From contig JAZRTI010000020.1 of the NCBI GenBank assembly GCA_045651955.1, forward strand, positions 9,667-73,666: a stretch of 64,000 nt of DNA, written 5' to 3'. The notes beneath the pieces are model-generated. The model had not been told where the DNA came from. It made no database searches and worked only from the letters and a program-made list of their open reading frames with translations. This DNA is from Christensenellaceae bacterium. Lineage in GTDB: Bacteria; Bacillota; Clostridia; Christensenellales; Borkfalkiaceae. The number at the start of each line of letters is the position of its first letter. The first letter of the stretch is position 1. Below, piece after piece: positions 8,959 through 12,226 of this stretch. The translations under genes were made by a program, and so were the position numbers.

Positions 8959-8987
8959 GGACCCAAACCGTGTTTGGGTCCTTTTTT
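8959..8987 (+). terminator. rho-independent terminator
   Basis: The stem ggacccaaac/gtttgggtcc is followed by a T6 run. Confidence 0.85.
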
Positions 8988-8999
8988 ATAGGTGTTATC

Positions 9000-10406
9000 A
9001 TGCAACTGGTTAAAAATGAGGAATATCATGCAACCATATCTGCCTTTGGTGCCAACGGTGAAGGTATTGTGAAAACCGAAGGAATTACGGTGTTCGTTCC
9101 CTATGCCATGCCCCAAGAAAAGGTGCAGTTTAAGGTTTTGAAGGTAAAAAAGAACTATGCTTTTGGTAAAGTTACTAAAATATTTACCCCTGCGGAAGAC
9201 CGTGTACGTGCCAAATGCCCTGTATTTGAAAAATGTGGTGGATGCCAATTGCAACACGTAAAATATGCTTCCCAATTAAAATTCAAAACCAAATTAGTGC
9301 AGGATTGTTTTCGTAAAATTGCAGGGCTGGAAGTTCAGGTATCTCCCTGCCACAAAAGCGATCAGGAATGGGAATACCGCAACAAGTTGCAACTTCCCGT
9401 CAGTCGTGATGAAAAGGGAACGCACGTAGGCTTTTTTGCGGAAAACAGCCATCGGATTGTGGATATTTCTGCCTGCCCCATACATCCTTCCTGGGCAAAA
9501 GACGTAATTTCCGTGATAAAAAATTATCTTTCTACGTGTGATGTTCAGGCGTATAGGGAGGAGGATAACAGTGGTGTTTTGCGCCACGTTGTAGTGCGCG
9601 AAGTCTGTGGAAAATTGATGCTTGTTTTTGTTATCAATGCAGAAGATTTACCCTATAAAGACGTTTTAATTGAACGTTGTAAAGAAAAATTCCACGATTT
9701 CAGTTTGTTTTACAACGTAAATCAAAGGGAAACAAACGTTATTTGCGGTGAAAAATATGTATGTTTTTATGGCAAGCCTAGAATGGGGGCAGAAGAAATG
9801 GGCATCCGGTATGAGGCCGGGCCCGAAACCTTTTTGCAGGTAAACGGTGCAGTACGCAAAAAAATATATGAAAAAGCAATAAAACTTGCCATTTCGCATC
9901 CCGAAACCGTAGTGATTGATGCATACAGCGGTGGGGGTATGATGACTGCACTTTGTGCTAAAAATGCAAAACATGCCTACGGTATTGAAATTGTGCCGGA
10001 GGCGGTGTCTTGCGCAAACACTCTTGCCGAAAAAAACGGACTGCAAGAAAAAATGACCAATATTTGCGGTGATTGCGAACAAGAACTTGTGCCTTTGGTT
10101 AAAAAATTGCGTTTGGCCGGTGAAAAAATTTCTGTTATTTTAGACCCTCCCAGAAAGGGTTGTTCGGAATCCGTATTGCAAACTTTAATGCAAGCAAAGC
10201 CGGATAAAATTGTTTACGTTTCCTGCAATCCGGCAACCTTGGCGCGCGACGTTGCCATTTTAACCGATCGCTTGGTTAGAATGAATGGGGAACTGCTGAA
10301 AAATGACCAACCAAATCCGATATTTGACGTTGTTTCGGTAGAGCCCTACGATATGTTTCCCCAAACCAAGCACGTGGAAAGTGTCGTTTGTCTGACAAGA
10401 AAATGA
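9000..10406 (+). CDS. rlmD: RumA/RlmD-type 23S rRNA (uracil-C5)-methyltransferase
   Basis: It has a TRAM domain N-terminus, the Fe-S Cys cluster CPVFEKCGGCQLQH, a SAM fold DAYSGGG, and DPPRKG...VSCNPATLARD...FPQTKHVE at the C-terminus. Confidence 0.85.
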   Translation: MQLVKNEEYHATISAFGANGEGIVKTEGITVFVPYAMPQEKVQFKVLKVKKNYAFGKVTKIFTPAEDRVRAKCPVFEKCGGCQLQHVKYASQLKFKTKLVQDCFRKIAGLEVQVSPCHKSDQEWEYRNKLQLPVSRDEKGTHVGFFAENSHRIVDISACPIHPSWAKDVISVIKNYLSTCDVQAYREEDNSGVLRHVVVREVCGKLMLVFVINAEDLPYKDVLIERCKEKFHDFSLFYNVNQRETNVICGEKYVCFYGKPRMGAEEMGIRYEAGPETFLQVNGAVRKKIYEKAIKLAISHPETVVIDAYSGGGMMTALCAKNAKHAYGIEIVPEAVSCANTLAEKNGLQEKMTNICGDCEQELVPLVKKLRLAGEKISVILDPPRKGCSESVLQTLMQAKPDKIVYVSCNPATLARDVAILTDRLVRMNGELLKNDQPNPIFDVVSVEPYDMFPQTKHVESVVCLTRK

Positions 10407-10417
10407 CCGCAAAACCT

Positions 10418-10490
10418 GTAGGGGCTGGCGCCCACGACAGCCCGTAATGAGCATTTAAGGGGACGGGACGTCGAAGGCGCCGCCCCCTAC
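10418..10490. repeat. GC-rich imperfect palindrome (REP/MITE-like)
   Basis: The arms are gtaggggctggcgcccacgacagcccgt (10418-10445) and acgggacgtcgaaggcgccgccccctac (10463-10490). They pair at 22 of 28 positions and are strikingly GC-rich against an AT-rich context. Confidence 0.6.
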
Positions 10491-10617
10491 CAAAAACGGT
10501 GTTCAAAAACAAAAAATGCCCCAATTTTGCGTTGGGACAAATGTGAGTTTTGAGCAAGACTCAAAAGTTCAATTTACAGCAGTACGGTATAACATATCGA
10601 AAACATAGGAGAAAAGT

Positions 10618-10974
10618 ATGAGCAATATTATTCAAGCAATTTACAACATTTATCATTGCCCTATGTCACGTAATCGTGTTCGCTCATGGGACGAGCCTTC
10701 CTTTACCATTCAAGCGAGAGGTCGCCATGCCCACATACACCCACAGGCTCCTAAAATGGTATTTATTGAAAAGAATAAACGTGAATTTGTAAAAGGCAAA
10801 GAGGACTTGTATCGCAGATTGAGTGTTAGAGAATGTGCAAGGATTCAAACATTCCCTGATACCTTTGAATTTGTGTATACAGATGTTGCCGATGCATACA
10901 AAATGATTGGTAATGCAGTACCTGTTGAATTAGCATTTAGTGTAGCAAAAGAGATAAAAAAATTAGTAAAGTGA
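10618..10974 (+). pseudogene. C-terminal fragment of a DNA (cytosine-5)-methyltransferase (motifs IX-X only)
   Basis: [20 protein letters not shown] is motif IX-like and [13 protein letters not shown] is motif X. Motifs I-VIII, including the catalytic PC, are absent. An in-frame stop lies at 10606-10608, and AGGAGA lies upstream of ATG 10618. Confidence 0.7.
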
Positions 10975-10991
10975 TTTGCAAAGGAGTAAAA

Positions 10992-11855
10992 ATGAAAGTT
11001 TTTATAAGTTGGTCTGGATTATTAAGTCAAAAAATTGCCGAATTGTTAAAAAACTGGTTAGAACAATGCATCCAATCAATTGAAGCATTCTATTCTTCGG
11101 AAGACATCGAAAAAGGAGATTTGTGGAATGCCAAAGTTACAAGCGAGTTGCGAGATACAAATTTTGGTATTGTATGTTTAACGAAGGATAACATTAATGC
11201 GCCTTGGATTCATTTCGAAGCGGGGGCATTATCTAAAATGTTAGATTCAAGAGTTGCTACACTTGCAATCAATATACCTTTTTCAGATATAAAAGGTCCT
11301 CTAAGCACTTTTCAAGCAACAAAAATTGAAAAGGATGACATGTATAAGCTTTTAAAAGCAATAAACAATGCGCAAGATAAGCCATTGACGGAAGAAAAAT
11401 TAAAAAATACATTTGAAGCTTTTTGGGGTAAATTTGAAAACGATTTCATGGAGATTATTTCCCAAGAAACAGAAAAAGAAGATAAAAAGTCTACACCAAA
11501 AATCAATGTTGCGGAAACGGTAGAGGAAATATTACAATTGGTGCGTAGCCAAAATGCAATGATAAATAGTTCAACGAAAATCATTCCACATGAATATTTC
11601 GAAGATATGATGCAAAGAGCAATACATAGGAATGATACAAATTATATCTTCGACAAGTTATACGATTTCACCAAATATGTTTTGGAAAGATTTAGTGAGC
11701 AAGAACCAGAGGAAAATATAGAAGTGGAATTTTTCAAGCACCAATATTTACAGTTCGTCGAAGACCTCGTATCTGATTATCCAGTATGGAGAAGAAGATT
11801 TAGCAATTTACTTTCGGCTAAAAACAAGTTTAGGCATAAACTGACAGTTGGTTGA
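10992..11855 (+). CDS. TIR-domain protein with an uncharacterised helical C-terminal domain
   Basis: KVFISWSG...IAELLKNWL...SSEDIEKGDLW...FGIVCLTKDNINAPWIHFEAGAL matches the bacterial TIR_2-type pattern and includes a candidate catalytic Glu. AAGGAG lies upstream of ATG 10992. Confidence 0.7.
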   Translation: MKVFISWSGLLSQKIAELLKNWLEQCIQSIEAFYSSEDIEKGDLWNAKVTSELRDTNFGIVCLTKDNINAPWIHFEAGALSKMLDSRVATLAINIPFSDIKGPLSTFQATKIEKDDMYKLLKAINNAQDKPLTEEKLKNTFEAFWGKFENDFMEIISQETEKEDKKSTPKINVAETVEEILQLVRSQNAMINSSTKIIPHEYFEDMMQRAIHRNDTNYIFDKLYDFTKYVLERFSEQEPEENIEVEFFKHQYLQFVEDLVSDYPVWRRRFSNLLSAKNKFRHKLTVG

Positions 11856-11883
11856 TTTCTCAATAAAGGAGTTTAATTCTAAG

Positions 11884-11976
11884 AAATATACCTTTTGGCT
11901 TTACAACCTCCGTTTTTGACACAAAAATATACCTTTTGACCTTATGACCCACGTGGAAACCGTTGCTTGTTTAACG
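11884..11976 (+). repeat. two degenerate direct copies resembling the rlmD 3' end
   Basis: aaatataccttttg occurs at 11884-11897 and 11925-11938, 41 bp apart. The second copy continues in frame as IPFDLMTHVETVACLT, compared with rlmD PYDMFPQTKHVESVVCLT. The 10-mer cacgtggaaa is identical at 10371 and 11950. Confidence 0.55.
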
Positions 11977-12062
11977 TGTAAAAACAACAATGCATAGTGT
12001 AAATTATATTTTTTAATCAAAATATTGCTTTTTACTATTTCTAAATATGTTACCTGTCCACC

Positions 12063-12094
12063 ATTTGTCCACGCTTTTGAAAGGCGTGGACAAA
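12063..12094. terminator. stem-loop, possible terminator
   Basis: A perfect 12-bp stem atttgtccacgc/gcgtggacaaat has an 8-nt loop. The downstream T-run is weak. Confidence 0.4.
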
Positions 12095-12226
12095 TTTTAT
12101 GCTTTTTAAGCGATTTATTATGACGCGCTTTTTAGAATGTTTATTTTCATATGCAAAATGTATTGAAGTGCAAGGGGATAAGGAAAGAGTTGGAATAAAA
12201 AAGCGAAAAGAATTAAAGAAAAATTA

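Follow-up and report, generated by a model that had tools for sequence, protein, structure and literature searches.

The gene described here lies at positions 10992–11855 (+ strand) of a 64,000-nucleotide stretch of the genome of a Christensenellaceae bacterium (assembly GCA_045651955.1, contig JAZRTI010000020.1, positions 9,667–73,666 of the forward strand), which is referred to below as the window. The open reading frame (ORF) begins with an ATG codon 7 nt 3′ of an AAGGAG sequence and encodes a TIR-family protein of 287 residues that matches the PADLOC model PDLC03016 (‘TIR-TM’) and PHROG 13899. It is located in a small AT-rich islet between rlmD and an acyl-activation operon, preceded by the fused remains of a type II restriction–modification (R-M) system. 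With moderate confidence, we regard the product as a stand-alone antiphage TIR protein with a connector and a variable helical tail, left from an islet that originally carried a restriction endonuclease (REase), a methyltransferase (MTase) and the TIR gene.

The Pfam TIR_2 profile (PF13676) matches residues 3–113 with a score of 34.5 bits (E = 3.3e-8), above its gathering cut-off of 28 bits, and the ORF is the sole TIR_2 match in a scan of the 1.53-Mb assembly with this profile. Database searches recovered 1,069 homologs, far above chance expectation. In the AlphaFold2 (AF2) model (mean pLDDT 78), residues 1–126 (10992–11369, + strand) adopt a TIR fold of alternating β and α elements, and a Foldseek search of the PDB returned TIR domains only, the top ones with a probability of 1.00 (SPARTA TIR-APAZ, BtpA/TcpB, PdTIR, plant TIRs and SARM1). 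When a profile of 93 homologs was compared with solved structures, it matched AbTIR (E = 8.7e-5) and placed Glu76 of the motif WIHFE (11205–11219, + strand; Glu codon 11217–11219) opposite the glutamate of AbTIR ‘WTNYE’, which we take to be the catalytic residue E208. Trp72, Glu76, Gly78 and Ala79 are invariant in the 93 homologs, with the glutamate in a WxxxE context. The CAP12-PCTIR_TIR profile (PF10137) scored 19.2 bits, under its cut-off of 24.7, and neither a signal peptide nor a transmembrane (TM) segment was found in the protein. The first-pass annotation, which was made from the letters of the window without database searches, had proposed a TIR protein with a glutamate in the catalytic position; profile, alignment and model all bear this out, and the protein is predicted to be an enzymatic-type TIR that cleaves NAD+.

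Similarity to catalogued proteins extends well beyond the TIR domain. PDLC03016 matches residues 1–230 on profile positions 1–238 of 293 (E = 1.4e-74) and PHROG 13899, of unknown function, matches residues 1–249 on positions 1–250 of 275 (E = 7.7e-68); owing to the variability of the tail, neither profile covers the last ∼55 residues. Judged by these matches, the protein belongs to the PDLC03016/PHROG 13899 family. A tblastn search of phage records identified a 315-residue homolog (P0121) in Escherichia phage P2_AC1, with 41% identity over residues 1–209, and a second homolog in the lambdoid phage mEp390. The P2_AC1 protein matches PDLC03016 across the whole model (E = 2.7e-118), and the two genes upstream of it match the PADLOC models ‘2TM-TIR’ and ‘1TM-TIR’ (PDLC02978 and PDLC02977). 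This three-gene locus of the P2-like phage AC1 (2TM + 1TM + TIR) protects E. coli C against the phages lambda, LF82_P8 and P2, and its TIR protein has been proposed to produce a signal for the TM-protein effectors (Rousset et al., 2022; PMC9122126). The name ‘TIR-TM’ refers to partner genes, since it is the AC1 neighbours that match TM models and the TIR protein and its homologs contain no convincing TM segment; a literature search for the name returned plant work only. The DefenseFinder name for the AC1 system is presumably Rst_2TM_1TM_TIR. The gene is thus a new member of an already catalogued antiphage TIR family and not a new system, and the earlier description of it as an orphan of an uncatalogued kind falls, given both profile matches and the kinship with the TIR component of AC1.

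The remainder of the protein is helical throughout residues 134–274 in the AF2 model. A connector helix, defined by predicted secondary structure and conservation (residues 134–164; 11391–11483, + strand), contains an invariant Leu137 and nearly invariant Phe141 and Trp145 (at least 90% of sequences), and is followed by a disordered K/E-rich linker (residues 165–172) and a helical bundle (residues 173–274). Residues 179–187 carry the family signature E179-x-L181-Q182-x-x-R185-x-Q187 (EEILQLVRSQN; 11526–11552, + strand), derived from homolog alignments; the ExLQxxRxQ pattern is also found in proteobacterial and phage members, as seen in their translations and in the pairwise alignment with the P2_AC1 protein. 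Residues 204–287 (11601–11855, + strand) form a hypervariable helical region that is a candidate specificity or sensor part. The frequency of the majority residue among the 93 homologs falls from 0.76 in the TIR domain (residues 1–128) to 0.63 in the motif region (residues 176–203) and 0.30 in the variable region (residues 204–262), the gradient to be expected if the enzyme and connector are conserved and the specificity region attached to them evolves fast. The C-terminal domain was also modelled separately (residues 170–287, pLDDT 79), and this model had no significant match in the PDB (best E = 4.1) or among the viral structures of BFVD (best E = 2.2), in agreement with the earlier account of a helical C-terminal half that has no recognized motif. 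Profile matches of this part to designed coiled coils were rejected as compositional. A phmmer search with residues 129–287 against 1.84 billion representatives gave 41 matches, all of the same architecture or fragments, and the C-terminal module is therefore not found fused to other effectors. The C-terminal TM segment that the name ‘TIR-TM’ might suggest was looked for in 120 homologs: only one of those listed exceeded the hydropathy threshold, and its segments proved on inspection to be amphipathic helices.

The TM partners of AC1 are missing from the genome described here. Neither the 1TM model PDLC02977 (AC1 control E = 1.6e-76) nor the 2TM model PDLC02978 (AC1 control E = 1.2e-58) has a match in it, and no ORF of the 1TM type lies near the gene. 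Both models are also without a match in phage mEp390, in a 4.7-kb Serratia plasmid and in C. bornimense. Another 50 genomes with a family member yielded no credible match to the 1TM-TIR model; the sole scoring genome of these has two weak matches (E ∼ 0.004) within ORFs of 647 and 677 residues. The family itself is broadly distributed. A scan of species-representative genomes detected at least 545 relatives in more than ten bacterial phyla and one archaeon, including Clostridia, Proteobacteria, Bacteroidota, Acidobacteriota, Verrucomicrobiota, Actinomycetota, Planctomycetota, Mollicutes-like lineages and one methanogen. ORFs were called at 76 GTDB loci from more than ten phyla and the two neighbours on each side were clustered. 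No neighbour is conserved across these loci (the largest cluster comprises three loci), and tblastn searches with the TM proteins of AC1 found nothing in them. TM segments are predicted in 14 of 82 adjacent same-strand neighbours versus 21% of all neighbours, i.e. without enrichment. Pfam and PADLOC assign the 103 nearest neighbours to scattered families (helix–turn–helix regulators, serine and tyrosine recombinases, TnpV, parts of type I and II R-M systems, JetD, SmpB and metabolic genes); one of the 103 is a ThsA_Macro protein. R-M neighbours are lacking at most of the 76 loci.

Twelve metagenomic and genomic neighbourhoods likewise share no conserved partner. The metagenomic contexts comprise SRA and Mrr genes with a serine recombinase, SIR2 with DUF87, a Thoeris-like cluster, AbiEii with an insertion sequence, an integrase-bearing element and, in some cases, only housekeeping flanks; elsewhere, R-M parts were found, and members also sit on small plasmids, at integration hotspots and in prophages as morons or at hotspot sites. 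In phage mEp390 (L033, 33400–34218) the family member is a single moron in the Q/holin interval, in opposite orientation and with its own bidirectional terminator. On the mobilizable Serratia marcescens plasmid NZ_CP091124.1 (L034, 4,747 bp) it overlaps the rep stop codon, and a small nadS is the sole other gene outside replication and mobilization. Among 41 related genomes, the TIR gene is present in the window's own genome only. Because the TM partners are missing and no neighbour is conserved in the 76 loci, the family is considered to be normally solo: it is a horizontally mobile single gene that tends to lie in defence islands and mobile elements. A defence context for the homologs, which the first-pass annotation had made a touchstone of its proposal, is therefore borne out only in part: defence islands, prophage sites, plasmids and integration hotspots occur, but sometimes the flanks are plain housekeeping genes.

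In the P0078 lineage (L004–L006, 7949–8419; more than 100 contig blocks) a 156-residue protein with two hydrophobic segments and no PADLOC match is always encoded 48 nt 3′ of the TIR gene, and the SRA and Mrr genes upstream vary; by analogy with AC1, this protein may be a lineage-specific TM partner. Genes for 155–156-residue proteins adjoin three family members in all and were considered as a common partner, but they are mutually unrelated, and one of them has two TM segments and no PADLOC match. On L007/L008 (3367–7852) the member P0056 lies 96 nt after a run of genes for a TIR-NDT-like protein, a 321-residue protein of unknown function, ThsB_TIR and ThsA_Macro; this island is Thoeris II-like, with up to three TIR proteins.

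In the window, the islet adjoins the 3′ end of rlmD (8970–10406, + strand), which was identified from the ORF list as a 23S rRNA m5U methyltransferase gene and whose homolog in a related islet (L026) matches PF05958 (tRNA_U5-meth_tr). The rlmD 3′ end is the integration target, and rlmD also precedes the islet in L026, L028 and L037. A repeat search located a left rlmD-end repeat of 33 nt (10371–10403, + strand), with the exact core CACGTGGAAA at 10371–10380, and a degenerate copy of the rlmD 3′ end on the right (11950–11982, + strand; it reads HVETVACLT...); the two copies are 73% identical and share this 10-nt core. The GC content is 0.32–0.34 across the islet versus 0.40–0.47 in the flanking genes, and no integrase lies within the islet. 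A small, AT-rich, horizontally acquired islet between rlmD-end repeats had been postulated before, as had the lack of an adjacent ThsA-like, STING, Ago or cyclase gene, and both are confirmed; the outer neighbours are rlmD and the acyl-activation operon.

The islet left end (10492–10617, + strand) corresponds to the sequence that once preceded the REase gene (92% identity to L026 2246–2372) and presumably holds the operon promoter and ribosome-binding site; a promoter scan of the islet gave no more sites than in shuffled sequence and no convincing σ70 consensus at 10492–10617. It is followed by an ORF (10618–10974, + strand) that blastn and protein comparison resolve into REase codons 1–15 fused to the last 103 MTase codons, with the junction at 10662/10663. 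This ORF covers only positions 227–324 of the 324 of PF00145, and its stop codon is separated from the TIR gene start by 17 nt. The methyltransferase fragment previously noted at this distance is indeed the C-terminal end of a C5 MTase, but it forms part of an in-frame REase–MTase chimera that uses the REase start. Past the TIR gene are two tandem 30-nt copies that are 80% identical (AAATATACCTTTTGrCyTTAyrAC...; 11884–11954, + strand, from the repeat search), which may be relics of successive insertions. A GC-rich imperfect palindrome (10418–10490) lies between the rlmD stop codon and the islet left end; it is taken to be host- or lineage-specific because it has no counterpart in the L026 junction, where 43 nt separate the rlmD stop codon from the homologous region. 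A perfect 15-bp hairpin with a T-run (12063–12095), which resembles a terminator, is located past the rlmD relic and before the acyl-activation operon.

Related contigs reveal what the islet has lost. Those of the closest homologs (P0003, 98% identity; P0004, 84% identity) have the order rlmD, NgoPII-type REase, C5 MTase and TIR, with an intact REase of 280 residues (PF09521) and an intact MTase of 325 residues (PF00145) that PADLOC classifies as type II REase and MTase. The intact pair is immediately upstream of the TIR gene in L026, L027, L028 and L037, and in the three closest lineages (84–98% identity) the three genes always occur in this order, with 17–21 nt between MTase and TIR. By blastn, L026 2246–2417 corresponds to window 10492–10662 (92%) and L026 3888–5186 to window 10662–11960 (97.7%); since the two blocks meet at 10662, the window lacks exactly 1,470 bp. 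The deletion removed the rest of the REase gene and two thirds of the MTase gene and joined what remained in frame behind the REase start codon. With neither enzyme complete, type II R-M activity is gone from the window as judged from its reading frames, and the upstream region of the operon probably still drives transcription of the TIR gene.

Homology between the islets stops at 11960, directly past the 10-nt core CACGTGGAAA (rlmD end 10371, relic 11950), and L026 has its own degenerate rlmD-end copy 3′ of the TIR gene. The rlmD genes of L026 and the window are ∼72% identical over a short stretch only, versus 97.7% for the islet, and it follows that the islet entered the same site in different species recently. 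The TIR gene thus arrived as the third gene of an integrase-less REase–MTase–TIR islet at the rlmD 3′ end, which is present in several Clostridia species.

Two further contigs illustrate the variability of this site. In L037 (Ruminococcus sp. metagenome-assembled genome, MAG, CAYZZJ010000006.1, 5850–6100), the R-M genes are intact and the islet is 90.8% identical to that of L026; the TIR frame has two frameshifts near codons 15–27, one of them within an A-run, which may represent reciprocal TIR decay or assembly errors in a low-coverage MAG. In L023 (G002:C47:1-2200, same genus), the islet right end and rlmD relic (89% to window 11881–11973) occur ∼280 nt past rlmD, followed by the islet left end (89% to window 10492–10602) and the contig end, and no TIR homolog was found anywhere in this assembly. 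This arrangement suggests that the site received a different cargo or was the target of tandem insertions.

Comparison with the 84%-identical homolog (L028) gives a dN/dS of 0.037 overall, 0.012 for the TIR domain and 0.059 for the remainder. We propose that the protein would act as a one-protein sensor–effector that cleaves NAD+ upon sensing a phage. The variable C-terminal part would recognize a phage component, and recognition would relieve autoinhibition or drive TIR–TIR assembly; the TIR domain would then cleave NAD+, resulting in its depletion or in an ADP-ribose-derived product, and the ensuing abortive infection would halt phage replication. This logic is modelled on SpbK (PMC11984713) and on TIR-V and TIR-IX (PMC11350192). 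The first-pass annotation had offered a choice between a self-contained sensor–effector and a remnant of a larger eroded system, and each is right in part: the gene stands alone without a conserved partner throughout the family and would be self-sufficient, and the islet is a remnant of REase–MTase–TIR. More tentatively, at somewhat less than an even chance, the whole PDLC03016/PHROG 13899 family may be self-sufficient, with the C-terminal bundle an unclassified phage-sensing fold and the AC1 TM genes a lineage-specific add-on; in the rlmD-islet subclade, the gene may in addition be co-transcribed with a type II R-M system as a second layer behind it.

Several points weigh against a functional stand-alone protein. 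NADase activity and phage protection are argued from homology, and the sole tested relative (AC1) was cloned with its two TM genes, a test of TIR alone not being reported (PMC9122126). The member 96 nt after the ThsB_TIR and ThsA_Macro pair would suit a ThsB-like producer of a signal. Relative to L026, the window allele has nine changes, seven nonsynonymous and two synonymous, a ratio compatible with relaxed constraint after R-M loss, and four substitutions are private with respect to all close relatives (A176T, P194S, P200H and P276A). Position 194 is proline in 81 of the 93 homologs, and the gene may for that reason be starting to decay. The comparison with L026 thus gives a hint that constraint on this copy was relaxed once the R-M genes had gone.

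The main rival explanation, which we consider unlikely though worth serious weight, is that the protein is a signal-producing, ThsB-like TIR that makes a messenger for a separate effector and that would be an orphan sensor without function here. The proposal of signalling for AC1 by Rousset et al. (PMC9122126) speaks for it, as do the member directly 3′ of ThsB_TIR and ThsA_Macro, the single ThsA_Macro among the 103 nearest neighbours and a weak PADLOC ThsB match (E = 0.0013). The candidate effectors are, however, not where this explanation would place them: the own genome has no match to the TM partner models and lacks ThsA_Macro and SIR2_2 as well, the 50 carriers contain no credible 1TM match, and the 76 loci have neither a conserved partner nor neighbours enriched in TM segments. 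The gene also occurs without a defence partner on the 4.7-kb plasmid and as a phage moron, and a sensor that lacks an effector would hardly be expected to be under the strong purifying selection seen in solo copies.

Only slightly less plausible, yet still improbable, is a decaying leftover, in which the R-M system or three-gene operon was the selective unit and the TIR gene is drifting towards a pseudogene. The deletion of the R-M genes fits this explanation, as do the private substitutions, including P194S at an 87% proline position, and the 7:2 ratio with respect to a 99%-identical copy. L037 is also in line with it, and since its TIR frame is broken while R-M is intact, the TIR gene appears to be dispensable in some lineages. 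The window copy nevertheless retains its ORF, its ribosome-binding site and every invariant TIR residue, and the in-frame deletion keeps the upstream region, so that read-through transcription and translation are possible. Nine substitutions are too few for a test of relaxed constraint, and the L037 frameshifts may be assembly errors.

It is improbable to a far greater degree that the TIR protein is coupled to the co-transcribed R-M system and is not an independent module, for example by serving as a back-up triggered by inhibition or failure of restriction. The constant REase, MTase and TIR order with its 17–21-nt spacing in the three closest lineages, and other members beside SRA/Mrr or methyltransferase genes, would suit such coupling; the linkage is nonetheless lost beyond the subclade, with most of the 76 loci having no R-M neighbour, the clustering of unrelated defence genes in islands is a simpler explanation, and the TIR gene persists here without R-M genes. 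A non-defence role, as an NAD-metabolizing or host-interaction TIR like the Tcp/Btp virulence factors or gut-microbial TIR NADases, is very improbable: the fold resembles BtpA, TcpB and PdTIR, and gut and rumen bacteria carry TIR NADases (PMC9092222), but the protein lacks both a signal peptide and a TM segment. Members of the family reside in temperate phages, on plasmids and in defence islands, the PADLOC model matched is one for defence with an E. coli member from a validated antiphage locus, and the gene is patchily distributed (1 of 41 relatives).

Taken by itself, the gene adds one more routine entry to the known bacterial TIR defence proteins. System-level tools call ‘2TM-1TM-TIR’ only when all three genes are present, and thus miss the solo form, apparently the usual one in nature. 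Should solo genes prove active, the system definition needs revising, and a single-gene TIR defence of wide distribution, with a sensor domain as yet unclassified, would be recognized. The locus is also a clean natural example of defence-islet erosion, in which one host lost R-M by a precise in-frame deletion; in its counterpart L037, in an islet at the same type of rlmD-end site, R-M was kept and the TIR reading frame apparently lost.

Among known systems, the NgoPII-type R-M pair is intact in related islets, whereas the window keeps 15 codons of the REase and the last 103 of the MTase in a fused form. With respect to cyclic nucleotide systems, no CD-NTase or pyrimidine cyclase ORF was found within ∼4 kb of the gene in either direction, the search for cyclases having been confined to this interval, and SAVED and STING domains gave no match. 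The TIR-APAZ protein of SPARTA is the best structural match, covering the TIR domain and the first following helix over ∼155 columns (E = 3.7e-5), but the identity is 14–20%, the present protein has no APAZ domain, and neither a short prokaryotic Argonaute nor any Argonaute-sized ORF is adjacent. Like ThsB of Thoeris, the family comprises small TIR proteins beside varied partners, and one member adjoins ThsB and ThsA_Macro; the PADLOC ThsB1 match is nevertheless marginal (E = 0.0013), and the conserved connector and motif of the family are not ThsB features. In a search for ThsA, the own genome had no match to PF20016 or PF13289, the SLOG-specific model not being part of this search.

The proposed logic of a sensor and TIR NADase in one protein has its closest parallel in SpbK of the B. 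subtilis element ICEBs1, a single mobile-element protein with a small, non-catalytic recognition domain and a TIR NADase (PMC11984713), and in TIR-V and TIR-IX. These proteins are activated by binding of the phage portal, and NAD+ depletion then leads to abortive infection (PMC11984713, PMC11350192). Their sensor is N-terminal and their TIR domain C-terminal, the reverse of the present family, and apart from the TIR fold the present family showed no relationship in sequence to SpbK, TIR-V or TIR-IX. Identity with the E. coli TIR-V and TIR-IX families was rejected in view of their C-terminal TIR domain (PMC11350192).

The closest known relative is the AC1 system. It differs in that two small TM-protein genes precede the AC1 TIR gene and are absent here and in almost all carriers examined, in that the C-terminal 80 residues cannot be aligned, and in its host, which is E. 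coli as opposed to a gut or rumen Clostridia MAG. The two proteins have in common a TIR domain with the pattern ‘FISWSG...WIxFE’, a connector helix, the motif LxxxxRxN...P..LLP..Y and a variable helical tail; they are 41% identical over residues 1–209, both match PDLC03016 and PHROG 13899, and both are encoded on mobile DNA.

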